A DNA stretch of 64,000 bases from Candidatus Bathyarchaeota archaeon (GTDB taxonomy: Archaea; Thermoproteota; Bathyarchaeia; Bathyarchaeales; Bathycorpusculaceae), in the NCBI GenBank assembly GCA_963777155.1, contig CAVZPM010000038.1, positions 32,001-96,000 of the forward strand, in the 5' to 3' direction. Made by a program: the position numbers and the translations under genes. The stretch's first letter is position 1; every line of letters begins with the position of its first letter. The notes beneath the pieces are model-generated. The model did not search any database. It was not told where the DNA came from and saw nothing but the letters and a program-made list of their open reading frames with translations. This document shows positions 622-41,071 of this stretch, piece after piece.

Positions 622-3324
622 TTATGGCCGTTTTCTCATCATTACTACAGCTAGCATAACTAGCACTATAATGATTAAGACAAACAGACCAGCAGTTGCC
701 GGTAGGAAGTATTGATCAGCCATAGATTGAGCCTGTGTTGGTTGCGGTGTTGCTGTTGCTGCTGGTGTTGCTGCGTAGAATGAGGTTGAGGCTGATGTTG
801 GCCAGTATGAGTTAGAGCCATCGAAACTGGCGAAGAGTGTATAGTCGCCTGAGATGTCTGGTGTCCATGTGTAACCGAATGTTCCACTAGGAGTACTTAC
901 TGTGGTGCCGATTGCTCGGTAGTTGCCGTTTTGGTCAAGAACGCTCAGTGTGATCGGAACGCCTGTTACGTCGGTTGGCATCGGCTGGTCCTGATAGACA
1001 TGCTCCATAAATTTGCTCTGGCTTGCATCTGAGATGCATGGTACGCCGTTGGGGAAGTTCTTGGCAACTTCAGATTGTGCAACGCCTGCTGAAACATCGG
1101 TTATGCTGCCTGTGATGCGTATCGGTGTGCCAGTGGTTACTCCAAGGTCAGGAGCATTAACTGTTATCTTTGTGGGTCCCTTGCCGAAAGCGTAAATTTG
1201 GTTGTCGTAGGCATTTAGTGATAGTAAGACGCCGTTTGCGATTGCTACTGAGCGGATGTAGGCGCCCAGTTCGCCCCAAGCCAGTGAGCCGTCGGTCATG
1301 TTTATAGCTAATAGTTGTCCTCCGTGGAAGAGTGGCGGGTTGTATTCGTGTCCGATTGCTATGTATGCGACTTCTGGTGTGTAGGCTTGCGAGCTGAAGA
1401 CCCAGAGTGGCCAGGTGCCGTATGGTGTTTCTATGCCTGAGTCGCCGATTAAGCTGGTGGTGTTGGTGTACCACTTTTCTTGGCCAGTTTTTCCGTTGTA
1501 TGCCCAGATGTCTCCTCCTAAACCGAAGAGAATAAGTGTGCCGTTAACTGGTGCGGCTTTAAAGCCAAATGTGTCGAAGGTGTTTGTGGTGCCGGAGGGA
1601 GTATCGAGGGTTGATGACCATGCTTTCTGTCCTGTGCGGATATCGAAGGCGTCAATTTTGTTGTTAACCACGTTGGCTATCACTCTGTTGCCGTCGATGT
1701 TGCAGCTGGTTGTTCTAGTGTAGGGTAGCAGGGATTGGTAGCCATCTGCGTATGTGAAGTTCTTGCACATCAAGATGTCGCCTGTTGTGTCATCCATGCT
1801 AGCTACTACTAGCCAACCGGATGTTTCGTCTCCGCCGCCTTGCATGATGGTGTATCCGCCTGTAAGAACTACTGCGTCGCCGCCGAGTGGGTTGATTGCA
1901 TCCATAGCGAGTGCTGGGCTGATCGTTTTGCCGTCGATTTGAGTGGGTACTGGTTTTGCCCACATGACACCTGTACCGAAGTCAATTGCGGTGTTCTTTG
2001 ATGGAGACCATCCCCATGAATTACCTAACGCCTGCGAGAAGTTGAAGCAGCACAGGACTGGGTGGCCTGCAGTGATGTTCACTACGCCTGTAACAGGTGA
2101 AGAACCAAATGTCGGGGCAGGACCGTATGTTCTCATTGTGCCAACAGTACTGTTGAGATAGTAGCCAATCAGGTCTCCCTGAGAATCTTCCTTCAGCGTT
2201 AATGACGAGCCGTTAACTATGCTTAGCACATACTGGCCAGTCTCAGCAGAGTATAGGTTGTACGCTGTGCGCCCTCCTGTACTTTGGATCAGGTTTCCAC
2301 CGGTTTCTGATGTAGGAAGGTTACCTGTAGTCCAGATGTATGGGCCGATTACGCCATACATGTTTATGGTCTTCCACTGGGTGGTCATTCCGCATCTTAG
2401 GATCGAGGTTGTGTTGATTGTCCATAGGGTTTCGCCTGTGTAGAGATCTGTGCAGACTATGCCGTTTGAGTAGCCTGTGGTTTCTGGGTAGTATGTCGAG
2501 TACATTTTCCCATTCATGATTACTGGTGCATATTGTGGCCAGTATTGTCTTGTTGACCAGTAGCTGCCTGTGTCTTCGGTTCCGCCTGCGCTGCCGCCTA
2601 CGACGCCACCTGCGCCCCAGGTTTTAGTCCAGAGGATGTGTCCGGATGTTACTGATGGGGTGTAGGGGTTGCATAAGCTGCTGACGTTGTATGCTCCTGT
2701 TGAGGCAAAGGTTATGGTGCCGAGTCCAAGCCAGGGTCCCATTATCTTGTACCAGTTTTGGACGTTTTGAGCTGATACTGGTGTTTCCCAGTAACTTGTT
2801 GGTAGGGGAGTTAATGGGTATGTTGTTTGGATTATGGGTTCTTGTTGAACGACAAGTGTATATACTGTGCTTATGCTGGGGTCTTCTATGAGTCCTCCAT
2901 TAGTTGGTGGTCCTCCTCCGAATCCTGAACTGCCTGCGGTGACTTGTCCGCCGTAGAACATTTGGAATGCCCAGTTGCCGATTTTGTCGGGGACGAAGCT
3001 GAGGAAGGTTCCTCCAGTTGTATCGCCTGTATATGGACCCATTGTTTTTACTTGACCCGTTGGATCAGTGATTTTGACTGTCATGTTTACTGGGCGGCTG
3101 CTGTCTATGAGTGGTGTCGCAAGGTAAAAGTTGACGCTGACTGCCTGTCCGACGCCGATTGGGTTGGGTGCTACGTTGATTTTTGCGTAGGTTGGTATGT
3201 GCGTGCCAGCTGGAATACTTTGCTGGCCGCTTGCCAATGGTAATGGTACTGAAAATATAGAAGCTACAACACAGATGATTAAAAATGCAGTCATTGTTGC
3301 TAAAGTTATTTTAGTGTTTTTCAA
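622..3324 (-). CDS. secreted PQQ-like beta-propeller repeat surface protein with C-terminal membrane anchor
   Basis: 900 aa; N-terminal signal peptide; W-containing propeller repeats (TGETLW, TGQKAW, TGQEKW, DGSLAW); Ig-like ends; Thr/Pro linker; TM helix plus RKRP tail; GGAG RBS before TTG. Confidence 0.85.
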   Translation of the reverse strand: MKNTKITLATMTAFLIICVVASIFSVPLPLASGQQSIPAGTHIPTYAKINVAPNPIGVGQAVSVNFYLATPLIDSSRPVNMTVKITDPTGQVKTMGPYTGDTTGGTFLSFVPDKIGNWAFQMFYGGQVTAGSSGFGGGPPTNGGLIEDPSISTVYTLVVQQEPIIQTTYPLTPLPTSYWETPVSAQNVQNWYKIMGPWLGLGTITFASTGAYNVSSLCNPYTPSVTSGHILWTKTWGAGGVVGGSAGGTEDTGSYWSTRQYWPQYAPVIMNGKMYSTYYPETTGYSNGIVCTDLYTGETLWTINTTSILRCGMTTQWKTINMYGVIGPYIWTTGNLPTSETGGNLIQSTGGRTAYNLYSAETGQYVLSIVNGSSLTLKEDSQGDLIGYYLNSTVGTMRTYGPAPTFGSSPVTGVVNITAGHPVLCCFNFSQALGNSWGWSPSKNTAIDFGTGVMWAKPVPTQIDGKTISPALAMDAINPLGGDAVVLTGGYTIMQGGGDETSGWLVVASMDDTTGDILMCKNFTYADGYQSLLPYTRTTSCNIDGNRVIANVVNNKIDAFDIRTGQKAWSSTLDTPSGTTNTFDTFGFKAAPVNGTLILFGLGGDIWAYNGKTGQEKWYTNTTSLIGDSGIETPYGTWPLWVFSSQAYTPEVAYIAIGHEYNPPLFHGGQLLAINMTDGSLAWGELGAYIRSVAIANGVLLSLNAYDNQIYAFGKGPTKITVNAPDLGVTTGTPIRITGSITDVSAGVAQSEVAKNFPNGVPCISDASQSKFMEHVYQDQPMPTDVTGVPITLSVLDQNGNYRAIGTTVSTPSGTFGYTWTPDISGDYTLFASFDGSNSYWPTSASTSFYAATPAATATPQPTQAQSMADQYFLPATAGLFVLIIIVLVMLAVVMMRKRP

Positions 3325-3632
3325 TTTTGTTTTTCTCCTTAATTCTGTAGTTTTGCTTCTCTGATTTTTGAGTATTTATGTTTTGGCAAAATATCAAAAA
3401 TATTGACATAAATTTCAGTATTTTGGCATTAATTCCGAAAATATCACCATAATTTTTGTATTCATAAAAACATTACAAGTCACAGTGCAAGGTAATCCAA
3501 AATCTTCAATCTGATTTAATTACGAAGAAATAAAGTCTTCAAAACGGTATTAATTTGGAAAAATTAATTTAGGTTACCCCCGATGATATTAAAAGCTGAA
3601 CCCCAAACTACACGAATCATCAACTCGGATGG

Positions 3633-4607
3633 ATAATAATAGATAAAGAAATTGACGAGATTGACGCTAGAATAATAGAAAATCTACTGGCAGATGCAAG
3701 AAAAAGTTTTCGTGAAATCGCACAGGACTGTAATTTATCCGTTACAACAATATGGGATCGCTTTGGGAAACTAGCAAATGCAGGAATCATCACCGGTTCA
3801 ACAATTCTAGTAAATCACAGAGTTTTAGGTAGCAAGATGACATGTAGTATTATAGTGGCTGTACATAAAGAGGAAATCAAACAAGTCTTTGAATATTTTC
3901 AAAAACTGCCTTTCAAAATAGGGCTAATATACCAAGATCCAAAAAATCGCATTGGTCTTATTGTTGGTCTGAATCACCCAGATGACCTAGGCAAGTTGAA
4001 AGAAAGCATAAAAAGGAACACTTTTGTTACCGATGTCAGGATTGACGTTTGGACTGGCATCAAGAATCTAATTGCGAATGTGGAGATAGGACAACAAGGT
4101 AATAAAAAAAGAGACATTAAACCATTTGAAAAACATGTCATTGAAGAGTATGATTTAGACGACATTGACCATCGACTGATTGATGCTTTAATTCTGAATA
4201 GTATTCAGCCATTTGGCAAACTTTCAGAACAGATAGGAGTTTCAGTCAACACAGTATCAAGAAGATACAAGAAATTGATCGATTGTGGCGTAATTAAATC
4301 TGCAATTCAAATCAATGTTCTGAAACTTGGCTATTGTGCAAATGTCAGTTTTGCCTTATCTTTTTCGTCCCAAGTTGACCAAAGTGACGCGATAAAAGAA
4401 GTTCTAGCAATAAAAAATAATTACCTTACAATAAAATTAAACGGTCCATACGATTTGATTATTCATGTACTATTAAGAGACCTCAATCAATTACTTCTTA
4501 CCCAGAAACAGATTGCAGATTTACCCGGAATATCAAGGTTTGAAATGCTGATATATCCTGCTATTCCACAGTGGCCCGTCAGCGGCGGTTATATATCGAC
4601 ATTTTAG
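3633..4607 (+). CDS. Lrp/AsnC family regulator with two tandem HTH-ligand-binding units
   Basis: The frame of ORF 3837-4607 stays open upstream to 3600 and encodes a first AsnC HTH (IDEIDARIIENLLADARKSFREIAQDC); second HTH LDDIDHRLIDAL...VSVNTVSRRYKKL; start uncertain (ATA codon or frameshift). Confidence 0.85.
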   Translation: MIIDKEIDEIDARIIENLLADARKSFREIAQDCNLSVTTIWDRFGKLANAGIITGSTILVNHRVLGSKMTCSIIVAVHKEEIKQVFEYFQKLPFKIGLIYQDPKNRIGLIVGLNHPDDLGKLKESIKRNTFVTDVRIDVWTGIKNLIANVEIGQQGNKKRDIKPFEKHVIEEYDLDDIDHRLIDALILNSIQPFGKLSEQIGVSVNTVSRRYKKLIDCGVIKSAIQINVLKLGYCANVSFALSFSSQVDQSDAIKEVLAIKNNYLTIKLNGPYDLIIHVLLRDLNQLLLTQKQIADLPGISRFEMLIYPAIPQWPVSGGYISTF

Positions 4608-5174
4608 TTTACCTTCAACCGATTGAAATCTGAGGTAATAATGGTTTTCGAAAATGTGGAATTAATACAGTTACTTACGAATCTAATTCACGATACAAAA
4701 CAGACCCGTGTTTTATCATTAACTTTTTGAACTTTTCCGTTTTTTTAATCATCAAATTATCTGTTTAAGCAATCTTGAACTAAAAGCTAAAAAAATCCTG
4801 GGAGAACTTTCTTTCAAAAGAAAAAAGAGGTAATCTGGTGATATCTCCACTTTGCGAGGGGTTCAAATCCCCCCTGTTCACAAGAATAACTCCAGGACAT
4901 TTTGGGATTTATTTTCTTTTTCTGAAAAGCATGTTTTCGCCGGAGTCTACCACTTCACAGAGTATTTAGCCCTATAAGCTTATAGATTCTTTCAAAAAAA
5001 CTTTTGTTATTCTTCTTGCGGCAAGGACCCAATTACTAAGAAAAAGATAATTTGTGAAATGGGAATAAGGGTTAAACAAAAACCAGTAATTAAAATGTTA
5101 TTTCCATAAGTAGAGCCAAAATCAAAAAGAAAAAGGATTTGTTAATTGAGTAAAGATGTTATAAGCTTAAGAGC

Positions 5175-5318
5175 TTAATATCTGCGTGGTGGTCTTCGTT
5201 TTGAGTAGCATTCTCGGCAGTATACTGGCCTGCTTCCGTCTGGTTTGAATGGAACGTCGCATTCTTTTCCGCAGTCTGCGCAGGTTGCCTTGTGCATCTC
5301 TTTATTGCCATATGACAT
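5175..5318 (-). CDS. CxxC-x17-CxxC zinc-ribbon small protein
   Basis: Hand translation, 47 aa, MSYGNKEMHKATCADCGKECDVPFKPDGSRPVYCRECYSKRRPPRRY; hallmark VPFKP...RPVYC; absent from ORF track. Confidence 0.9.
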   Translation of the reverse strand: MSYGNKEMHKATCADCGKECDVPFKPDGSRPVYCRECYSKRRPPRRY

Positions 5319-5718
5319 TTCTATTTTTCACTTCCTTTTACTACTTTGCAAATTCCTCTGCATGCTTGTGTAGCGCGGTGCTTACACTAAAACTTATCCG
5401 TTAAAAAAAAGCTTTCCGAGGTCGTTATTGCTTTCACTCACAAACAACCCCCCAACCGCAAGCCACGAAAACTGTGCGATAATAACCGCAGAGGTAGCGT
5501 GTATTTTCATATTCTTATATCTCGTTAATTATTCCAAAGTTAAAGAAAGAGTTATGCGAGTGAATCCTTTTCTCTGTCCTGGTTTCAAATCCCCCAGTCC
5601 GCTTAATTCTTGAAACTATCTGTTAAAATCAGTTGTCTCCCTGGCCATCAATGAGTCGGCGGGGCAACTTCAGGGTTAATTTATTAACGCATTGGAATTG
5701 CAGATTTGCTTGGAAGAA

Positions 5719-29048: not shown

Positions 29049-30272
29049 CTATACTTTCCATCGTTTTAGTGCATCATCAAGTTCCTGATGACTCTTTGCA
29101 TATTCATCAAGGGTTTTGCCTTCCAAAGTGGCGTCAACGGCTTGACGCATTGCTGTGGCACCACAGATTGTTCCATTTGGATGCCCATGGATGCCGCCGC
29201 CTGCTTGGATGACTAAGTCGTTGCCGAAAGTCGACATCAGAGCAGGAACCAAACGAGGATGTAACCCGCCACTTGCAACAGGCAAAACTGGCTCAAGATC
29301 GCCCATTTCTGCTTTGCAGGAAGATATGTTTTCGAGGACTTCGGCTTTGGTTTCCGACATTTTACCGACAACCGTTCCGACGTGGAGTTGGTCTACGCCA
29401 ATGATTCTGGCGACTGACGCGATGGGTTTCATGGAGATACCGTGCTGCTGGTTTTTGGTGAAAGCAGCGTGTCCAGCGCGGTGGGCGTGAATGACGAGTT
29501 TGAAGTTTTGGTCTCTTAGCGTTTGGAGGGCTGACCATCCACATGTGAGAATATCCACCATGACGTATTCGCCACCTTGGTCAAGGACGCTTTGGGCGCG
29601 CTTAAGCATGGTGTTTGTTTCTGCAGTGATGTTTATCATGTAGACTTTACGTTCACCTGTTTCTTTTTGGGCTTTGTCTCGGCTCTCCAAAGTCTGTATC
29701 AAGCGGGTTTCAAACGGGTTGAAACTCTGGCTACTCAGGTTTTCATCATCCTTTACAATGTCGCAGCCGCCTAGCCACGCCTCATATGCCACTTTAGCAT
29801 GGTCTTTGGTCTCTAACCCAAGTTTAGGTTTGATTATTGTTCCTACCAGTGGACGCTTGGGAACTTTGAGGAGCTTACGGATTCCGCTGATCCCAAAGGC
29901 TGGACCTTTAAAGCTATCTAAAAGTTGTTTTGGGAATTCTATGTTAAGTAGACGTAGGTTTTTTAGTGCTTTTAAGCCAAAAACGTTTCCTGCTATGCTA
30001 CTTAGGATATTTGGCATGTTAGCTGGTTCAAAAAGTTCGGGAGGATATGCTATTTTTACTACGTTATCTTCGATTCTAAAGACGTGGGCAGCAAGTCGCT
30101 TGACGTAGGGCTTCTCAGTGGTTAGTTCTGTCCATGTGCCCACTGAACTCTCCGCCGCCACACCTCCTGCAGCTTCCTTTAGGCTTAAGCCTTCGGGGTC
30201 AACTTGAAAAGTACACACCAATTCTGTTTCTTTGGGTTCGTAGGTTAAATCGACAAAGTCAAGATACTTCAA
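29049..30272 (-). CDS. rbcL: ribulose-bisphosphate carboxylase large subunit, form III
   Basis: AAESSVGTW, IKPKLGL, DIVKDDE, HAHRA, ASGG, GGGIHGHP catalytic motifs intact. Confidence 0.96.
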   Translation of the reverse strand: MKYLDFVDLTYEPKETELVCTFQVDPEGLSLKEAAGGVAAESSVGTWTELTTEKPYVKRLAAHVFRIEDNVVKIAYPPELFEPANMPNILSSIAGNVFGLKALKNLRLLNIEFPKQLLDSFKGPAFGISGIRKLLKVPKRPLVGTIIKPKLGLETKDHAKVAYEAWLGGCDIVKDDENLSSQSFNPFETRLIQTLESRDKAQKETGERKVYMINITAETNTMLKRAQSVLDQGGEYVMVDILTCGWSALQTLRDQNFKLVIHAHRAGHAAFTKNQQHGISMKPIASVARIIGVDQLHVGTVVGKMSETKAEVLENISSCKAEMGDLEPVLPVASGGLHPRLVPALMSTFGNDLVIQAGGGIHGHPNGTICGATAMRQAVDATLEGKTLDEYAKSHQELDDALKRWKV

Positions 30273-30352
30273 AGAGTAATCCTCGCGTCTGCTAATGAGA
30301 AATGGGGTTTCCTTAAAATCTTTAACTATTTCCCAGCTTAATTGGTATTGAC

Positions 30353-31906
30353 GTGTTCGAAATGGAGTTAAGCGTTGAAACCTTGATGATCACTACGGGT
30401 GGTAGCAGAATCGCACTACTTAGCGAGCAAACCGCCAGCCTTTTAGGAGTACATAGTTCAGACAGGATAAAAATAACCTGCGAAAAACAAGAGATGATAG
30501 CCATCGCCAACATCGCTGATTATTTTCCACAAAACCGCGTTGGACTCTACCGAGAAACCGTTACAGCACTCGGAGTTAAGGAAGGCGAAACTGTGAATGT
30601 GCAGTTAGCACCATTGCCTGAATCGCTCTTTAACATACGCGCCAAGCTGCATGGGGAACGCTTACGCGAGAAAGATATTATGGCCATCGTAAAGGACGTT
30701 ATAGAGAGACATTTAAGCACGGTTGAAATCGCCGCGTTCCTTACAGCACTTAGCATCCATGGATTGAGCACGGGTGAGACCGAATCTCTTTCAAGAGCCA
30801 TGATTTCTACTGGCAAAACAATTGATTTCGGCAAAAGACCCATCCTAGACAAGCATAGTGTAGGTGGAATCCCAGGTGATAAAACTAGCATGCTCGTTGT
30901 ACCCATTGTGGCAGCGGCAGGTTTCACGATCCCCAAAACTTCCTCGCGAGCCATCACCTCCCCAGCTGGCACAGCAGACCGAGTTGAGACCCTTTGCCCA
31001 GTCAACTTATCCATAAAAGAAATCAAAGAAGTCGTCTCAAAAACAAATGGTTGCCTAGTCTGGGGTGGGTCTTTGGAGCTTGCGCCAGCCGATGATCTCT
31101 TCATTCAAGTTGAATACCCTCTGGGAATCGACCCTATGCTTTTACCTTCGATTCTAAGTAAGAAGAAAGCCATCGGAGCAACACATGTAGCAATCGACAT
31201 CCCGACGGGTATGGGTGCTAAAATCAAAACCCGAACTGAAGCCTACACTTTGGCATCCGATTTTGTAGATTTGGGTAAACGGTTAGGGTTAAACATCCAA
31301 TGCGCGTTGACTTTTGGGGAACAACCCTTGGGTTACGGAATCGGACCCGCCTTGGAAGCAAGGGAAGCGTTGACTACTCTTATGGGTGCGGGTCCACCTG
31401 ATTTACGTGAAAAAGCCGTTTCCCTCGCTGGAATGCTCTTCGAAATGGTAGGAGCCAAAAACGGTCGAGCCATGGCTGAAAAAATGATTGATTCGGGCAA
31501 AGCAATGAAAAAGATGCGTGAAATCATAGCTGCTCAAGGCGGAAATCCATCGGTTAAGCCTGAAGAGTTGCCTATTGGTCAAGAATCAGCTATTGTGCGT
31601 TCAGAGCAGGCAGGCAGAGTCCTCTGGCTAAGCACAGACGACATTGTGAGGATAGCTAGAGAAGCTGGGGCACCAAAAGAGAAGGGAGCAGGCGTTGTTT
31701 TGCATGCAAAGTTAGGCGGGACAGTTCACAAAGGTGGTGTGCTCCTTGAAATCTATGCTGAGCGAAGCAGCAAGTTGGCTTCAGCGCTAGAACTAGCGGG
31801 GAAACTCTCTCCGATTGTATTAAGTAAGAAACCAGAGGAAAAAATGATTCTGGACAAAGTACCAGAGAAAACCAGACATGAAAAAGCGTTCAATATAGAC
31901 AGGTAA
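30353..31906 (+). CDS. deoA: AMP phosphorylase
   Basis: DKHSVGGIPG, KTSSRAITSPAGTAD, N-terminal extension typical of AMP phosphorylase. Confidence 0.95.
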   Translation: MFEMELSVETLMITTGGSRIALLSEQTASLLGVHSSDRIKITCEKQEMIAIANIADYFPQNRVGLYRETVTALGVKEGETVNVQLAPLPESLFNIRAKLHGERLREKDIMAIVKDVIERHLSTVEIAAFLTALSIHGLSTGETESLSRAMISTGKTIDFGKRPILDKHSVGGIPGDKTSMLVVPIVAAAGFTIPKTSSRAITSPAGTADRVETLCPVNLSIKEIKEVVSKTNGCLVWGGSLELAPADDLFIQVEYPLGIDPMLLPSILSKKKAIGATHVAIDIPTGMGAKIKTRTEAYTLASDFVDLGKRLGLNIQCALTFGEQPLGYGIGPALEAREALTTLMGAGPPDLREKAVSLAGMLFEMVGAKNGRAMAEKMIDSGKAMKKMREIIAAQGGNPSVKPEELPIGQESAIVRSEQAGRVLWLSTDDIVRIAREAGAPKEKGAGVVLHAKLGGTVHKGGVLLEIYAERSSKLASALELAGKLSPIVLSKKPEEKMILDKVPEKTRHEKAFNIDR

Positions 31907-34647: not shown

Positions 34648-34691
34648 CAAAAACAAAGAAGAAAAACAGAAAGGAGTCTCAAAAAGAGACT
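34648..34691 (-). terminator. hairpin plus U-tract terminator of Nfn operon
   Basis: AGTCTC-N5-GAGACT stem followed on minus strand by T-rich tract. Confidence 0.55.
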
Positions 34692-34699
34692 AAAATGGC

Positions 34700-36124
34700 T
34701 TATTTTTTGTTTGTTAGGTATTCGTGCATGGCTTTGGCTGCGCGTTTACCTGCACCCATTGCGCTAATGACTGTGGCTGCGCCTGTTGCAACGTCTCCGC
34801 CTGCGTAAACTCCATCTAAGCTGGTTTTACCAACTTCGTTGACGCATATGGTACCGTGTTTTGCATCGCTTTGGAGACCGTCTGTGGTACGTTGGATAAT
34901 TGGGTTCGGTGTTTGTCCGATAGCGATTATGACTGTATCGACATCCATCGTAAATTCTGAGCCTGGAACTGTTTTGACACCTCGTCTGCCTTTTGCGTCT
35001 GGCTCCGTGAGTTCCATTGCGATGACTTTCATGCTTTTAACCCATCCTTTTTCGTCGCCGTAGAATTCTACTGGCGCCGCAAGGAATTTACAGACTAATC
35101 CTTCTTCCTCAGCATTCTCGATTTCTTCATGCCTTGCAGGTAGTTCATCACGCGAACGTCTGTAGAGTAAACATACTTCAGATCCAAGACGCATGCTACT
35201 TCTTGCGCAGTCCATAGCTACGTTTCCGCCACCGATCACAACTACGTGTTTGCCGATGCGTATTGGTGTATCGTATTCTGGGAACAGGTAGGCTTTCATG
35301 AGGTTAACGCGGATGAGGAATTCGTTGGCCGAGTAGATTCCGCCAAGGTTCTCTCCCTTACAACCAGTGAACTGTGGTAAGCCTGCACCGCTTCCGATGA
35401 AAACTGCCTCGTAACCGTTCTTCATCAGCTCAGGTATTGTGTGGATTCTACCGACCAAGTTGCCAAGACGCAAGTCAACACCAAGTTTCTGGACATAGTT
35501 GACTTCGTTTTGAACGATGGCTTTGGGCAGACGGAACTCTGGAATACCGTACATAAGCACTCCACCGCCTACATGCAACGCCTCAAACATGGTGATTTCG
35601 TGGCCAAGCTTAACGAGGTCGGCTGCAACGGTTAGTCCCGCTGGACCTGCACCGATAACTGCTACTTTTTTGCCTGTTGCCGGAGCTGTTGGTGGAAGTT
35701 GAGAACCATTGTCTCGTTCCCAATCTGCTAGAAAACGTTCTAAACGTCCGATGCTTACGGGTTCACCCATCTTACCAATGACACATTTTGCTTGGCATTG
35801 TACTTCTTGGGGGCAGACACGTCCGCAAACGGCTGGCAACGCGTTTTTTGCTTTAATGGCAGCTATGCCTTCGGCATACTTCTTTTCTCTGATGCATTTG
35901 ATGAATGTTGGAATTGGAACTTCCACTGGACATCCGTTCCGACATTGAGGATTGGGACAGCAAAGGCATCTGCTTGCTTCTTCTTGGGCTTCTGCTTCAG
36001 TGTATCCCAAAGCGACTTCACTGAAATTTTTGGCGCGAACCTTAGGCTCTTGTTTTGCCATTTCTACGGCTTTCTTGTTTAACTTTGGTTTAGGCTTTGT
36101 TTCTGCCACACTTACAACCTCCAC
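34700..36124 (-). CDS. nfnB: NfnB/SudA NADPH-binding flavoprotein subunit (GltD-like)
   Basis: EASRCL.C..P.C..GCP, CGRVCPQE, GAGPAG, GGGNVAMD, YRRSR, GAATVI. Confidence 0.92.
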   Translation of the reverse strand: MEVVSVAETKPKPKLNKKAVEMAKQEPKVRAKNFSEVALGYTEAEAQEEASRCLCCPNPQCRNGCPVEVPIPTFIKCIREKKYAEGIAAIKAKNALPAVCGRVCPQEVQCQAKCVIGKMGEPVSIGRLERFLADWERDNGSQLPPTAPATGKKVAVIGAGPAGLTVAADLVKLGHEITMFEALHVGGGVLMYGIPEFRLPKAIVQNEVNYVQKLGVDLRLGNLVGRIHTIPELMKNGYEAVFIGSGAGLPQFTGCKGENLGGIYSANEFLIRVNLMKAYLFPEYDTPIRIGKHVVVIGGGNVAMDCARSSMRLGSEVCLLYRRSRDELPARHEEIENAEEEGLVCKFLAAPVEFYGDEKGWVKSMKVIAMELTEPDAKGRRGVKTVPGSEFTMDVDTVIIAIGQTPNPIIQRTTDGLQSDAKHGTICVNEVGKTSLDGVYAGGDVATGAATVISAMGAGKRAAKAMHEYLTNKK

Positions 36125-36935
36125 TCATTTCTGACAATACTGAACTCAACCTTTCTTCAGGAAGCATCGTTCGTTGACGCAGTATTAACTCGTCAAAATC
36201 TGTTTTGTGACCGTCAAATTCTGGTCCATCCACACAACCGAACATCATTTTGCCATCAACTGTAACTCGGCATACCCCGCACATACCCATCCCATCAATC
36301 ATTATGGGCGTAAGTGTTACGATTGTAGGTATGTTGTAGGGCTTGGTTATTTCGCTGATGTCCTTCATAAGAATAACTGGACCCATGACTACACAACGAT
36401 CAAACTTTTCTGTCTTAAGCAATTCTTTCAGGAAATCTAAGCCTTTGTAGCCTTTTGACCCATCGTCGGTTGCAACGTAGACTTTTTCACTGAGCGCTTT
36501 AGCCTCGTTCTCCATCATAACGAATTCTTTGGTTCGGGCACCTAAAACTGTAGTTACTTTGTTCCCTGCTTCCTTCATAGCTTTAGCCTGTAATAGCAAT
36601 GGCGCAATCATTACGCTTCCGCCCACACAGAGTACCTTGCCAAAGTTTTTGACTTCTGATGGGTTGCCCAGCGGACCAGTAACATTGTCTATACATTCTC
36701 CTTGATTCAGCAAGCCCAAGTTTTTCGTGGTTTTGCCGACTTCATGGAAAGCAAAGGAAACCGTGCCCTTCACTGTGTCATATCCACAGATTGTTAAGGG
36801 TATACGTTCACCTGTTTTTCCATGAATTACTATTAGAAATTGACCAGCGTGCGATTGAACAGCAACGTCTGGTGCCTCAACTTCAAAGAGTTTGATCTTG
36901 GGAACTAATTCTTTTTTCGATACTATTTTGTACGT
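36090..36935 (-). CDS. nfnA: NfnA/SudB NAD(H)-binding FAD/[2Fe-2S] subunit
   Basis: Frame open upstream of GTG 36773 to ACG-TAC-AAA-ATA (xYKIV, GQF, GERIPLTI); GPLG, TDDGS, DGMGMCGVCR, CVDGPEF. Confidence 0.9.
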   Translation of the reverse strand, partial: TYKIVSKKELVPKIKLFEVEAPDVAVQSHAGQFLIVIHGKTGERIPLTICGYDTVKGTVSFAFHEVGKTTKNLGLLNQGECIDNVTGPLGNPSEVKNFGKVLCVGGSVMIAPLLLQAKAMKEAGNKVTTVLGARTKEFVMMENEAKALSEKVYVATDDGSKGYKGLDFLKELLKTEKFDRCVVMGPVILMKDISEITKPYNIPTIVTLTPIMIDGMGMCGVCRVTVDGKMMFGCVDGPEFDGHKTDFDELILRQRTMLPEERLSSVLSEMSGGCKCGRNKA

Positions 36936-38149
36936 TTTGCAGTCGCCTCCACAGCTACTTCACGTTTGGGTAAAGCACATATTTTCTTATAGAATTCATC
37001 GAGTTTTGTTTCGAAGTCGCCAGCGCATCTGGGTGATTCCTCGTAGAGTTCAAATCTATCAATCAAACCCAGCTTTTTAAGTGAAACTTGCAATGCAGCC
37101 ACGTTGCGTTCTGCTGCGCTTCTTCCTTCTTGAAGTTTACAGTCCTTTGAGGAGCAAACCACACCCATGACGCCGTCGAAGCCACAGTTTAACGCGTTTA
37201 TGATGTGGACAGGGTCGAGGGATTTAAAGCATGGAACTTCAAGAGCTAAGACATTTTTACCTTCGAACGCTTTATTCGGGTTATCTAATGCCGAAAACTC
37301 GGACCATTGACAGACGAATGCAAGAACTGCGGGTCCTTTGTTTTTTGCTTTTAATTGTGCGAGCGATTTGCCGTAGCGGTCAACTACGTCTTCGAACTCG
37401 AAGCCTTTCACCTGTATGGCATGGTGAGGACAAACCAGTTGGCATGCGCCGCAGCCAGTACATTTTTCTTCATTCACTTTTGGAGTTGCAAACGATTCAA
37501 ACTCAAGTGCACCGTATGGACAGATAAAGATACATTTGTCACATCCCACACAAGCTTGCACATCGTAAACGGCTTTGCGAGAAAATTTTATGACTTTGAC
37601 CGCGTTCTCGTCGTACCCTAATTGTTTCAAAACATTTTTCGCTAAAACGAGTCGCCGAGTGTTAATTTTTGTGCCTTCTTTATAGCGGCAGAATGGGTCT
37701 TCACATTGAATCGAAACAATGTTTTTTACACCAGAGTTTAAAGCATCAAAAACAAAGTCTGTTGGAACTCTTCCTGCACAGGGCAAACGCAACGCCATGT
37801 AGTTGTCAACCTTCAACCCTTGCGCTTTAAGGATGTCTTGAACTTCACCTGTTGAAGGTGAGTTTCCTCGGCACATTAAAACAAGGGTTTCAGCTGCAGT
37901 TTTGGACTTTTCTTGGGCCTTTTTAAGGTAGTCAGAAAGTTTGTCATAGGTGTAATATTGCATTTTTATGGCTGCAGATGGACAAGCACTGTAGCATATT
38001 CCACAAACTTGGCAGTCCTGGCTGTTGACTTCAACTTTGCCCGTTGAATCCGCTTTTATAGCTTCATACGGACAGATAGATTTGCAGACGTAACATCGAC
38101 TGCATAGGTCTTGATCGATTTCCACTACAGCAAGACATTTTTCACTCAT
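36923..38149 (-). CDS. tandem 2x[4Fe-4S] ferredoxin-MvhD/FlpD repeat protein
   Basis: Four CxxCxxCxxxCP motifs and two MvhD-like domains (LMC...LPCAGRV...QCEDPFCRY; FVC...VPC...GFDGV...VCSSKDC). Confidence 0.88.
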   Translation of the reverse strand: MSEKCLAVVEIDQDLCSRCYVCKSICPYEAIKADSTGKVEVNSQDCQVCGICYSACPSAAIKMQYYTYDKLSDYLKKAQEKSKTAAETLVLMCRGNSPSTGEVQDILKAQGLKVDNYMALRLPCAGRVPTDFVFDALNSGVKNIVSIQCEDPFCRYKEGTKINTRRLVLAKNVLKQLGYDENAVKVIKFSRKAVYDVQACVGCDKCIFICPYGALEFESFATPKVNEEKCTGCGACQLVCPHHAIQVKGFEFEDVVDRYGKSLAQLKAKNKGPAVLAFVCQWSEFSALDNPNKAFEGKNVLALEVPCFKSLDPVHIINALNCGFDGVMGVVCSSKDCKLQEGRSAAERNVAALQVSLKKLGLIDRFELYEESPRCAGDFETKLDEFYKKICALPKREVAVEATAKRTK

Positions 38150-38252
38150 TTGTAAACCTCATTTCACTCGTTTTAAACCTAATATCGCTTTGGCAGAGCT
38201 TAAGCTGATTGAAAACATGAAAAGAGTTTAAGAATATTATAATCCTTTCTCT

Positions 38253-39185
38253 CTATTTTCTGTAATATGGTCGTCTAATGTAACTGTAAGCTTCCAAAGC
38301 CGCAGTTATGCCTTGACCCACAGCAGTACCCACCTGCTTTATCGGTTGATCTGTAACGTCACCTGCCGCGAACACTCCAGGCAAGTTGGTTTCCTGCCGT
38401 ACGTTGACTTTGATGTAGCCATGCTCGTTTATGTCTACACCTGCAGTTTTAGCAAGTTGGCTGTTTGGCGCCTCTCCAATCTGAACAAAAACTGCGTCAA
38501 CAGCTACCTCGTTTGTTTCTTTAGTCATGTTATCGAATAATGTTACTGTTCTGACTTGTTTGTCTCCTTTGATTTCTTGGATTTCGGTGTTCCACATTAT
38601 GCTGACGTTACTTTTTGTCGAAATATCCGAAACCAAACTCGCTTCTGCACGGAAGGCTTCCCGCCTGTGGATAACAAAAACCTGAGACGCCAAACCTGAA
38701 AGATAAAGTGTTGTGACACATGCGGTGTTTCCTCCGCCAACAACAAGGACTCGTTTGCCCTTAAAGAATGGCCCATCGCATACTCCACAATAACTTACTC
38801 CTTTGCCTTTGAATTCGGTTTCGCCTTTAACGCCAAGCTCCCTATAATGTGAGCCTGTGGAGTAGATGACGGCTTTGGTTTGGTATGCGGCGCTGGAGGT
38901 CTTCACGGTCTTTGCTTCGCCTGCGAGATCAAGTCCAGTAACAGGTTCAATGTCATGGATAGTTGCCCCCACTGTTCTAGCATGGGATGTCATTTTTTCC
39001 GAGAGTTCGCCACCGCTTATCTCAGCAAAACCAGGGTAATTAACGACTTTTGAAGCGTCAGAGATTGCGCCGCCAGCAAATTTTTCGTCTAAGATAAGTG
39101 TCTTCAAGCCACTTCGAACTGCGTAAATGCCAGCCGCTAAACCAGCAGAGCCAGCGCCAATAATTATAACATCCCAGTTCTCCAT
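38253..39185 (-). CDS. trxB: thioredoxin-disulfide reductase
   Basis: GAGSAG, GVSYCGVCDG, GGGNTA, HRREAFR, FAAGD. Confidence 0.93.
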   Translation of the reverse strand: MENWDVIIIGAGSAGLAAGIYAVRSGLKTLILDEKFAGGAISDASKVVNYPGFAEISGGELSEKMTSHARTVGATIHDIEPVTGLDLAGEAKTVKTSSAAYQTKAVIYSTGSHYRELGVKGETEFKGKGVSYCGVCDGPFFKGKRVLVVGGGNTACVTTLYLSGLASQVFVIHRREAFRAEASLVSDISTKSNVSIMWNTEIQEIKGDKQVRTVTLFDNMTKETNEVAVDAVFVQIGEAPNSQLAKTAGVDINEHGYIKVNVRQETNLPGVFAAGDVTDQPIKQVGTAVGQGITAALEAYSYIRRPYYRK

Positions 39186-39310
39186 AATATACAACTCTTT
39201 ACGGTAAATACTGAGCATGACAGGTTATAAAATTGTTCGATTTGCCTGAACTCCAATAAACTGATAAGTACCTATTGATTTAGTTTCTAATAGCTTTTTG
39301 AGGTTTGATT

Positions 39311-41071
39311 ATGGCGAAATACAGGTGCACAGTCTGCAACTACGTTTATGACGATGCGAAAGAAAAAGTGAATTTTGCTGATTTACCAAAAGAATGGGTA
39401 TGTCCGGTTTGCGGAGCGCCCAAGTCAGTCTTTGTGCTTCTTGCGGAGAAATCCGAGGAGAAAAAAGTAATTGACCATACGGTTTCTGAAGTTCTGATTA
39501 ACCAAATTGCTGCTTGGGGTGTGCAGTACGTTTTCGGTATTCCCGGAACATCAACATTGGGTATTGTGGATGCCATACGCAAAACTAACGGCAAAGTCAG
39601 GTATATACAGGTGCGCCATGAAGAAACTGCGGCGTTTATGGCTTCAGCTTACGGCAAGTTAACTGGGCATGTTGCGGCTTGCCTCGGAATTTCTGGTCCA
39701 GGGGCAACCAACCTTGTGACTGGCCTGTACGATGCGCAACTGGATCATTCCCCCGTTTTAGCCTTGACAGGCATGGTTGCTCGCAAACAGATAGGCCAAG
39801 GCGCAATACAAGAAATTGACCATCAAGCATTCTTTGAGCCCTTAACAGTCTACAACAAAACTCTGATGACAGAAGAACAAACCACAAGCATCACAACTTT
39901 GGCGATTAAACATGCACTTCTAGATCAAGGTGTGGCGCACATCGGAATTCCCAACGATGTCCAAAAGTTGCCATATAAAGCTGAGATTTTGCCGTTTGAG
40001 GGCAGAATGCCTAACATGGCGTATGGGCAGGAAGAGGGGGTGATCGAGAAGGCAGCAAAAGTTATCGATTCAGCGAGTAGACCGGTAATTTTAGTAGGGT
40101 TTGGCGCAAGAGGACAAGGTAACAAACTGTTGAAGCTCGCGTCGAAGATTGGTGCGCCAATTATGGCTACTTTTAGGGCCAAAGGTGTCGTTGACGAAAA
40201 CGAGACGCTCTATGTTGGTTGTCATGGCGGTGTAGGTTCAACTGCGGCAGGTGAACTCATGACAAAATCAGATTTGCTCATTGCGATTGGCTCGTCGTTT
40301 TCGGATTTGTCGCTGATACCTCAGAAACGTACGGTGCAAATTGACATTAATCCATTGATGATTGCCCGTAGGTACCCAGTTGAAGTCGCCTTGCTGGGCA
40401 ACAGCGCCGTTCTGATTCCGAAACTGACAGAGAACGTCGCACAAAAACAAAACACAGATTACTTAAATGAAGTTGCAAGATTAAAACAAGCTTGGGCGGA
40501 ACAACTAGAAAAAGAAACAAACCCAACCACCAAGCCAATCAGACCACAATACATAATGAAGGTATTAAACCAAAAAATCGCCGATAATGCAGTCATTTCG
40601 CTAGATGTTGGCGAGAACTGCTGGTGGTTTGGTAGAAACTTCCGCATGAAGAAAACGCAAAAAATGGTCATGAGCGGCGGTTTAGCGACAATGGGCTTTG
40701 GTTTGCCAGGAGCATTGGCTGCAGCGCTGGCTTACCCTGAAAGGCAGATTGTGTGTTTAACAGGCGATGGCGGCTTAACTATGGTTTTAGGCGACTTCTT
40801 AACTGCCCTCAAATATAATTTGCCAATCAAAGTGTTTGTAATAAACAACAAGCGGCTTGGAATGATTATGCAAGAGCAGAAAGTAGAGGGCTACGAGAGT
40901 TGGCAAACTGACTTATTCGATTACAGCTTCGCTGACTTCGCTGAACATTCGGGGGGCATGGGTATCAAAGTCACTGAGCCAAGTGAGCTTGAGGCAGCAG
41001 TTGACAAAGCACTCAAATCTACTAAAGCCACAATCGTTGACATAGATACTGACCCGAGAAGGTTTCTGTGA
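39311..41071 (+). CDS. rubredoxin-fused pyruvate oxidase-like ThDP/FAD enzyme
   Basis: N-terminal CTVCNYVY...WVCPVCGA; VRHEE, SGPGATN, GDGG...NN ThDP motif. Confidence 0.9.

Follow-up and report, generated by a model that had tools for sequence, protein, structure and literature searches.

A doubled ferredoxin-MvhD protein as a candidate wire subunit of an NfnAB variant in Bathyarchaeia

Nfn is one of the model enzymes of flavin-based electron bifurcation. On a contig of a Candidatus Bathyarchaeota archaeon (GenBank assembly GCA_963777155.1, contig CAVZPM010000038.1, positions 32,001 to 96,000; these 64,000 nucleotides (nt) are called the window here) the genes for the subunits NfnA and NfnB follow a gene for an iron-sulphur (Fe-S) protein of 408 amino acids, composed of two copies of a ferredoxin domain joined to an MvhD-like domain and written below as (Fd-MvhD)2. 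With moderate confidence we read these three genes as an operon encoding a variant of NfnAB in which (Fd-MvhD)2 is a dedicated wire subunit, with six clusters, that couples the enzyme to Mvh/Hdr modules. A preliminary description of this DNA had proposed that the Fe-S protein is a dedicated third subunit or electron wire of NfnAB, and a dedicated role beside this NfnAB paralogue is favoured by synteny, by gene overlap with a coupled non-AUG start and by a changed motif in the linked NfnA; from there we infer the physical association of the proteins, the Nfn branch that is served, the partner at the far end of the wire and the direction in which electrons flow. A thioredoxin reductase gene (trxR) lies upstream in the same orientation. 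All four genes are co-oriented, as the same description had noted, being on the minus strand in the list of open reading frames, and their identities are backed by Pfam.

The internal duplication that had been seen in the 408-residue protein, two [4Fe-4S] motifs and a four-cysteine MvhD-like domain occurring twice, was borne out by profile searches for Fer4 and FlpD/MvhD. Pfam recognises Fer4 in four stretches (2.7e-25) and FlpD in two (2.8e-36); the FlpD profile (PF02662) scores 124.7 bits against a cut-off of 22.3, and both copies were also recovered by a scan of the whole genome. Twenty-four cysteines, eight plus four in each of the two units, are invariant among family members in alignments of 17 and of 47 sequences, and the predicted cofactors are four [4Fe-4S] and two [2Fe-2S] clusters. 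Ferredoxin domain 1 matches the C-terminal ferredoxin domain of HdrA (chain residues 586-646). MvhD-like domain 2 aligns with the solved MvhD chain 5odc_D (5.9e-8) and also with 7bkb_F, its four cysteines falling on those of MvhD, and it superposes on 5odh_D with a template modelling (TM) score of 0.77 (Foldseek). The assignment of MvhD-like domain 1 comes from its four invariant cysteines and Pfam, the alignment to solved chains covering repeat 2. The protein thus has the profile and cysteines of MvhD and, in repeat 2, the fold, and is a doubled fusion encoded with nfnAB rather than the stand-alone MvhD of about 140 residues that is encoded with mvhAG and docks on HdrA. An AlphaFold2 monomer model is compact and confident (predicted local distance difference test score, pLDDT, 85.8; predicted TM score, pTM, 0.83). 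Foldseek and a wide structural alignment of this model gave only single ferredoxin or MvhD domain matches and no solved chain covering more than one domain (best whole-model TMq 0.31), which gives no evidence of a new fold. Each half of the protein aligns with the C-terminal ferredoxin and MvhD tail of HdrA2 (positions 573-750 of the NCBIfam profile NF040770), and the whole scores 179.7 bits against a cut-off of 1100, the match being to the tail only. Half 2 holds 21 lineage-specific conserved positions and half 1 holds 8, which is a lead only, and a look-up in the ESM Atlas suggests that doubled Fer4 and FlpD proteins exist in Chloroflexota. An apparent 712-residue fusion of thioredoxin reductase and Fe-S protein in one locus (L104) was rejected as an artefact of a run of N.

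The order of the three genes was followed in three samples: 20 genomes from the genus and order of the window's organism; 20 genomes spread across the class, 15 of which have a Fe-S protein of at least 41% identity; and, from species-representative genomes, the best 80 of 333 stretches that matched. Some genomes occur in more than one sample, and kin are not independent of each other; the records bear the label Bathyarchaeota or Bathyarchaeia almost throughout, and at least ten Bathyarchaeia families are covered. The linkage described from the window proved to be conserved, with nfnA directly after the Fe-S gene at 20/20, 15/15 and 79/80 loci, the single miss having only 147 nt of room behind the Fe-S gene. 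The next gene is nfnB at 19/20, 13/15 and 79/80 loci; the miss in the first sample is a contig end, and in L095 and L096 nfnB lies 5-6 kb away. This order is retained from 93% down to 41% identity while the flanking genes change. Across the class 63 of 301 genomes have the Fe-S family, and within the family of the window's organism 38 of 48 do. In a maximum-likelihood tree built from 41 proteins, without one row (N_L085) whose stretch contains a stop, the 20 NfnAB-linked rows all fall to the same side of a branch supported at 100/100. Pairwise distances of the Fe-S protein in 19 genomes follow those of NfnA (Spearman 0.88; partial 0.76 given NfnB) more closely than those of NfnB (0.71; partial 0.28), a weak indication that is confounded by shared descent. 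The source genome, which is 90.6% complete, has three nfnAB pairs, and only that of the window has the Fe-S gene. A second pair (L113:6159-9726; G000:C21) is preceded, with overlap, by a gene for a fusion of peroxiredoxin (AhpC/TSA) and a cytidylate-kinase-like domain, so that this Nfn paralogue, too, has a neighbour of the thiol-redox kind.

Translation of nfnA appears to be tied to that of the Fe-S gene. The list of open reading frames starts nfnA at a GTG (36773; frame 36090-36773), a start that would remove the N-terminal flavin domain of NfnA. No stop interrupts the frame back to 36959, and it has no ATG, GTG or TTG before 36773; the residues encoded upstream of the GTG align with solved NfnA from residue 2, and the ATG of nfnA in relatives falls exactly on an ACG of the window (36935-36933). 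Among 78 species-level loci scored, the start codon at this place is ACG in 57, ATG in 16, GTG in 4 and CTG in 1, always with GGAGG 10 nt before it. With the ACG start nfnA overlaps the Fe-S gene, whose stop is a TAG at 36925-36923, by 13 nt. Of the overlapping ends that had been claimed for the last three genes, the 35 nt shared by nfnA and nfnB stand, and those of the Fe-S gene and nfnA hold only with this non-canonical start. As the start is non-AUG in many species and lies inside the end of the preceding gene, it suggests that synthesis of NfnA depends on translation of the Fe-S gene. To judge from these alignments the ACG looks like a conserved non-AUG, translationally coupled archaeal start, of which this operon would provide an example from nature.

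The large subunit of the linked pair departs little from known enzymes. NfnB has the domains Fer4_20 (2.7e-40) and Pyr_redox_2 (5.4e-34), matches 4ylf_B at 3.1e-163 and scores 580 bits with TIGR01316 (cut-off 471.75); it contains both cluster motifs given in PMC6405883, RCx2Cx4Cx3CPV and GRVCPQExQCx3C, and these do not vary among 19 orthologues. It therefore has the cluster motifs and the flavin adenine dinucleotide (FAD)/NADPH Rossmann domains of an NfnAB large subunit. NfnA is a PyrK-type small subunit with FAD-binding and [2Fe-2S] domains (DHODB_Fe-S_bind, 1.5e-10; NF004862, 348.3 bits against 220; 5jca_S, 1.6e-75; 4ylf_A, 3.2e-71), and its residues D214, C219, C222 and C234, which we take to be the cluster ligands, are invariant. 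The motif of the nicotinamide adenine dinucleotide (NAD(H)) site has changed: it reads GGSVMIA in the window and GGGVG(I/V)A in solved NAD-using enzymes. Methionine, tryptophan or phenylalanine replaces the last glycine in 16/16 linked NfnA, together with a two-residue deletion further on, while the two other NfnA paralogues of the same genome retain that glycine in GGGVG-type motifs. An independent draw from the whole class, in which two further loci were unreadable, gave methionine or phenylalanine in 7/7 linked NfnA and GGGVG in 19 of 22 readable unlinked ones; one of the three exceptions is a degenerate second copy. From this motif we infer that the linked NfnA has an altered NAD(H) site or has lost it. 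At gene level, then, the locus differs from a two-gene NfnAB served by soluble ferredoxin, a third overlapping gene being conserved.

The following mechanism is proposed. NfnB would retain the NADP(H)-binding bifurcating FAD and two [4Fe-4S] clusters, and NfnA would retain its FAD and [2Fe-2S] cluster with an altered NAD(H)-binding glycine motif. The third subunit would form an electron wire of six clusters, each half being equivalent to the electron-input tail of HdrA::MvhD fusions, and this wire, itself a bound protein, would take the place of a diffusible carrier at one Nfn branch. The wire may serve the NfnA branch; the alternative would be docking on the ferredoxin site of NfnB. MvhD domains are docking adaptors, and those of (Fd-MvhD)2 would connect NfnAB to an Mvh-type [NiFe] hydrogenase and/or to Hdr subunits such as those of an hdrC-hdrB-mvhG-mvhA cluster on another contig. 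The conversion of H2/H+ (or of a heterodisulfide) would then be coupled to NADP(H), with neither free ferredoxin nor NAD taking part at the wired branch.

Gene context suggests that the partners are the Mvh-type hydrogenase and the Hdr subunits encoded elsewhere in the source genome. Hydrogenase genes were present in 9 of the 121 sequences searched (120 loci and the window). In family f18 (L097) and family f21 (L095 and L096) the Fe-S gene comes directly after mvhG-mvhA-hycI, and in three species of the window's genus (L143, L146 and L152; about 2770-5490 in each) mvhG-mvhA is inserted between trxR and the Fe-S gene. A remnant of hdrB of about 60 residues precedes the inserted genes, and it looks as if a piece of an hdrCB-mvhGA cluster had been copied or moved there. 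The large subunit in L146 is Mvh-like (7t2r_D, 2.8e-116; 5odc_F, 3.5e-109), and the top NCBIfam scores of this hydrogenase are those for VhuA and VhuG, below their cut-offs. Its orthologue in the source genome is 89% identical and is encoded on contig C36 within hdrC-hdrB-mvhG-mvhA-flavodoxin-like-YgbA-hycI, a cluster without mvhD; the other MvhD domains of that genome are in an HdrA::MvhD fusion on contig C35 and a small Fd-MvhD protein on contig C7. Of the 63 genomes that have the Fe-S family 61 also have an Mvh-type large subunit (E<=1e-60), as do 131 of the 238 that lack the family; the kin among these genomes are not independent. The hydrogenase link is thus recurrent, neither universal nor proven.

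A second type of locus widens the range of possible partners. Five homologues of the Fe-S protein (L099-L103; 35-38% identity) have no nfn genes beside them and adjoin metV (DUF5981) and metF (MTHFR), which are fused in L102; Mvh-type hydrogenase genes occur in three of these five loci (L100, L102 and L103), with no hdrA in the cluster. By their gene content these loci may encode an HdrA-free, H2-linked methylene-tetrahydrofolate/methanopterin reductase. It is possible, as a more tentative extension of our reading, that (Fd-MvhD)2 is a modular plug that wires one Mvh-type hydrogenase (and/or HdrBC) to NfnAB, MetFV or HdrA, and that the window encodes part of an HdrA-free MvhAG-(Fd-MvhD)2-NfnAB in which the wire replaces NAD(H) at the NfnA flavin. 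If this were true, it would amount to direct coupling of H2 to NADPH (and ferredoxin) in non-methanogenic archaea, for which we know of no characterised enzyme.

The distal partner could instead be Hdr rather than a hydrogenase, electrons passing to or from HdrBC or an HdrA::MvhD fusion in what would be an NADPH-linked heterodisulfide reductase of a non-methanogen. Family f7 gives this some substance, as its loci (L093:5142-10152, L051:8953-15065) carry the Fe-S gene, nfnA, nfnB, hdrC and hdrB on one strand, hdrC-hdrB directly after nfnB and without hdrA. In L088 and L089 a gene for HdrA::MvhD lies 3-5 kb upstream, divergent, and an HdrA with an inserted NfnB-like domain is reported from the ANME-1 archaea in the available text of PMC9012536. 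We nevertheless think it unlikely, as hdr genes stand near the operon in few lineages only, with none in the window, and in the solved complexes MvhD bridges the hydrogenase to the ferredoxin domain of HdrA, a domain that is already built into the 408-residue protein.

It is also improbable that the Fe-S protein is the private multi-cluster ferredoxin of a canonical NfnAB, firmly or loosely bound and with no further docking partner. NfnA and NfnB are close to solved bifurcating enzymes, a ferredoxin is the usual partner of Nfn and the surroundings of most loci are free of hydrogenase and hdr genes, all of which would fit. Such a role leaves unexplained why there are two MvhD domains with all four cysteines in 47/47 members, why paralogues stand beside MetFV and hydrogenase genes and why the glycine motif has been lost in the linked NfnA.

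The preliminary description had named trxR as a possible source of the partner, the Fe-S protein linking NfnAB to the adjacent thioredoxin reductase (TrxR) in a split HdrA-like arrangement. Such a flavoprotein would reduce thioredoxin or another disulfide with bifurcated electrons. TrxR is indeed encoded upstream on the same strand at 18/20, 7/15 and 72/80 loci of the three samples, including families f2, f6 and f9; the units of the Fe-S protein match the HdrA2 tail, and the HdrA core has the thioredoxin reductase fold according to the accessible text of PMC9012536. The enzyme of the window has flavoprotein domains only (Pyr_redox_2, 9.8e-51), however, with no Fer4 or other Fe-S domain in Pfam. 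It passes the TIGR01292 model for low-Mr NADPH-dependent thioredoxin-disulfide reductase with 348.1 bits (cut-off 343.45), and its best solved relatives, 7aaw (1.7e-71) and 4zn0, are ordinary thioredoxin reductases; HdrA, by comparison, combines the TrxR-like FAD domain with Fe-S clusters of its own and ferredoxin domains. The protein carries CGVC and GGGNTA...HRREAFR, and in neighbouring orthologues CxxC is kept in 84/84 and HRRxxxR in 71/84; we assume that CxxC is the redox centre and that GGGNxA and HRRxxxR are the NADPH motifs. It is the sole TrxR homologue of the genome, in which thioredoxins are encoded on other contigs. At different loci trxR stands anywhere from about 100 nt to 5.5 kb away from the Fe-S gene, with intervening genes, and an upstream TrxR is absent in families f7, f11, f18, f21 and f29 of the first two samples.

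Between the two genes lie 103 nt (38150-38252), in agreement with the positions that had been given for this gap. Directly behind the trxR stop there is a conserved purine-rich block with a TATA-like box, the GAAA..ATTATA columns of which are invariant in an alignment of 15 species, and downstream of it come a T-rich tract and then the GAGGT site of the Fe-S gene. By the archaeal promoter consensus the block is presumably a B recognition element (BRE) and TATA box, which makes it a candidate promoter of the Fe-S-nfnAB operon. Two wetland metatranscriptome runs hold 7-8% of the sequence words, in contigs of 141-257 nt that are mostly 90-99% alike, and so from relatives, and that cover parts of all four genes. 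In the two runs no contig bridges 38150-38252, although such contigs cannot show transcript ends; one stops at 38171, which is 22 nt before the ATG of the Fe-S gene. To judge by its motifs and surroundings TrxR is probably a housekeeping NADPH-dependent enzyme with its own transcription unit and not part of an Nfn complex, and its adjacency is best explained by use of NADPH made by Nfn rather than by docking. A role as the partner in a split HdrA is accordingly very unlikely. We give even less credence to the genes being conserved neighbours without physical association, such as co-regulated redox genes whose order kin share by descent, given an order held over so wide a range of identity and at least ten families amid changing neighbours, overlapping frames and a start that depends on a non-AUG codon.

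Several observations count against a dedicated wire subunit coupled to a hydrogenase. The window has no hdr or hydrogenase genes, as had been stated before; searching it by tblastn for MvhA/G, HycI and HdrA/B/C produced no match at E<=1e-15. Of about 115 NfnAB-type loci, only 6 have hydrogenase genes next to them. The genomes G059 (100% complete) and G211 (94%) carry the operon but have no match to an Mvh-type large subunit at E<=1e-60, and the hydrogenase is therefore not an obligatory partner everywhere. In family f1 the hydrogenase is present in 46 of 48 genomes, operon or not, and co-occurrence discriminates little there. Two unlinked NfnA (L238 and L242) also have phenylalanine at the last glycine, and the effect of methionine, tryptophan or phenylalanine on NAD(H) binding is judged from the motif. 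On the trxR side the promoter assignment relies on the general archaeal consensus and read-through from trxR is possible; the adjacency of TrxR (72/80 close loci; f2, f6, f9) is more than chance, and a functional tie beyond the supply of NADPH is possible.

The module can be compared with several known systems, of which it is apparently an undescribed variant combining Nfn with the MvhD adaptor. As in the NfnAB/NfnSL enzymes of T. maritima (4YLF) and P. furiosus (NfnI, 5JCA), NfnB has both [4Fe-4S] motifs and NfnA its Fe-S domain; the window adds a third, translationally coupled Fe-S subunit gene and the replacement of the last glycine, and its pair is one of three in the genome. The P. furiosus NfnII (5VJ7) is likewise a paralogous Nfn whose small subunit departs from GGGVG (GAYTGIV), and the high-potential branch of this enzyme reportedly functions poorly (available text of PMC12506544 and PMC6405883). 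An extra subunit gene is not reported for NfnII in the texts covered, and NfnA of the window is nearer to NfnI (1.6e-75) than to NfnII (1.5e-50). With MvhD/VhuD of the MvhAGD-HdrABC complexes (5ODC, 7BKB, 8RVU) the Fe-S protein shares the fold, the four aligned cysteines and, in some relatives, an association with mvhGA, whereas its domain is duplicated, stands in each copy behind a ferredoxin domain with two [4Fe-4S] clusters and is encoded with nfnAB and not with mvhAG/hdrA. It resembles the tail of HdrA2-type HdrA::MvhD fusions without their flavoprotein core, and is 28% identical to the fusion of its own genome (G000:C35:4203-6656).

In the methylene-tetrahydrofolate reductase MetFV-HdrABC-MvhD of Moorella an MvhD module wires a non-Hdr flavoenzyme (available text of PMC6085437 and PMC5736913), which recalls the paralogues that adjoin metV/metF; the bathyarchaeal clusters differ in having no hdrA and a doubled MvhD protein, and in the window the partner would be NfnAB. 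NfnABC/Stn, the Bfu-type transhydrogenase (8OH5, 9N5U), is also a three-subunit NADPH/NAD/ferredoxin enzyme with an NfnB/GltD-like domain, but its subunits are unrelated (HydB/HydC-like), with no MvhD and no NfnA-type subunit, and it is to this unrelated type that the name 'NfnABC' refers in the printed text seen. PMC6405883, in the portion available, presents Nfn itself as an enzyme of two subunits that depends on ferredoxin and NAD. The Bathy-6 genome paper, in its accessible text, lists MvhAG, MvhD/HdrA and HdrCB and no Nfn. A doubled Fd-MvhD protein with NfnAB was not found described in full-text searches of the literature, a coverage outside which supplementary gene tables fall, nor in the available parts of the papers cited above, of PMC7886697 or of PMC11237513, PMC11631310, PMC11697101 and PMC9723716; within that coverage the architecture is, as had been supposed, not an Hdr/Flx subunit already on record. 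The module is of interest for the movement of electrons in Bathyarchaeia. If the third subunit is real, Nfn branches could be hard-wired to other enzymes and a reusable adaptor family, also serving MetFV, would be defined. It would also give a testable answer to the role of Hdr/Mvh genes in Bathyarchaeia that make no methane, which is posed as an open question in the text available of PMC7886697.

Table 1. Positions of genes, domains and signals of the locus, numbered from the first letter of the window.
Feature	Position	Strand	Basis and remarks
trxR, low-Mr thioredoxin reductase	38253..39185	-	Probable start ATG at 39185 (310 amino acids)
Purine-rich block and TATA-like box (TTATAATA, 38242-38235)	38232..38252	-	Directly after trxR stop; 15-species alignment
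GAGGT ribosome-binding site of Fe-S gene	38156..38160	-	6 nt before ATG; columns nearly invariant
(Ferredoxin-MvhD)x2 protein, 408 amino acids	36923..38149	-	Pfam FlpD x2 and Fer4 x4
Ferredoxin domain 1 (residues 9-70; Cys 16, 19, 22, 26, 46, 49, 52, 56)	37940..38125	-	Pfam, alignment
MvhD-like domain 1 (residues 89-185; Cys 93, 124, 149, 154)	37595..37885	-	Pfam, alignment, FlpD match in genome scan
Ferredoxin domain 2 (residues 190-250; Cys 200, 203, 206, 210, 230, 233, 236, 240)	37400..37582	-	Pfam, alignment
MvhD-like domain 2 (residues 273-395; Cys 280, 307, 332, 337)	36965..37333	-	Alignment to 5odc_D, Foldseek
GGAGG ribosome-binding site of nfnA, within 3' end of Fe-S gene	36946..36950	-	10 nt before ACG; kept in 20/20 relatives shown
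nfnA, 281 codons, ACG start	36090..36935	-	Sequence and relatives; solved relatives 5jca_S, 4ylf_A
nfnB, 474 amino acids, GTG start	34700..36124	-	Solved relative 4ylf_B; TIGR01316
Terminator-like hairpin AGTCTC-TTTTT-GAGACT, then T-rich tract	34650..34691	-	Candidate, read from sequence; directly 3' of nfnB stop

The start of trxR in Table 1 is an internal ATG. An upstream ATG extends the open reading frame to 39218 (321 amino acids), and the end at 39185 that had been given for the gene is therefore not that of the frame, although it fits the place where the alignments of relatives begin (residues 7-12). Two genes of other loci, trxR at L045:10410-11355 and nfnB at L048:11036-12450, were each found in two overlapping tblastn pieces, possibly through frameshifts or assembly errors. 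Three records labelled Acidoferrum, Limnocylindrales and Methanocella (L160, L179 and L190) carry the locus with 76-83% protein identity to the window, and these contigs have probably been binned into the wrong genomes.

Elsewhere in the window, at 29049-31906, a gene for a homologue of the RuBisCO large chain (minus strand, 407 amino acids) is divergent from a nucleoside/AMP-phosphorylase-like gene (517 amino acids; both by Pfam), a pairing that we take to represent the archaeal AMP salvage route. Divergent from trxR, at 39305-41071 on the plus strand, is a gene for a thiamine-pyrophosphate (TPP) enzyme with three TPP domains and an N-terminally fused rubredoxin domain, and this pair of genes is retained in most genomes of the genus.

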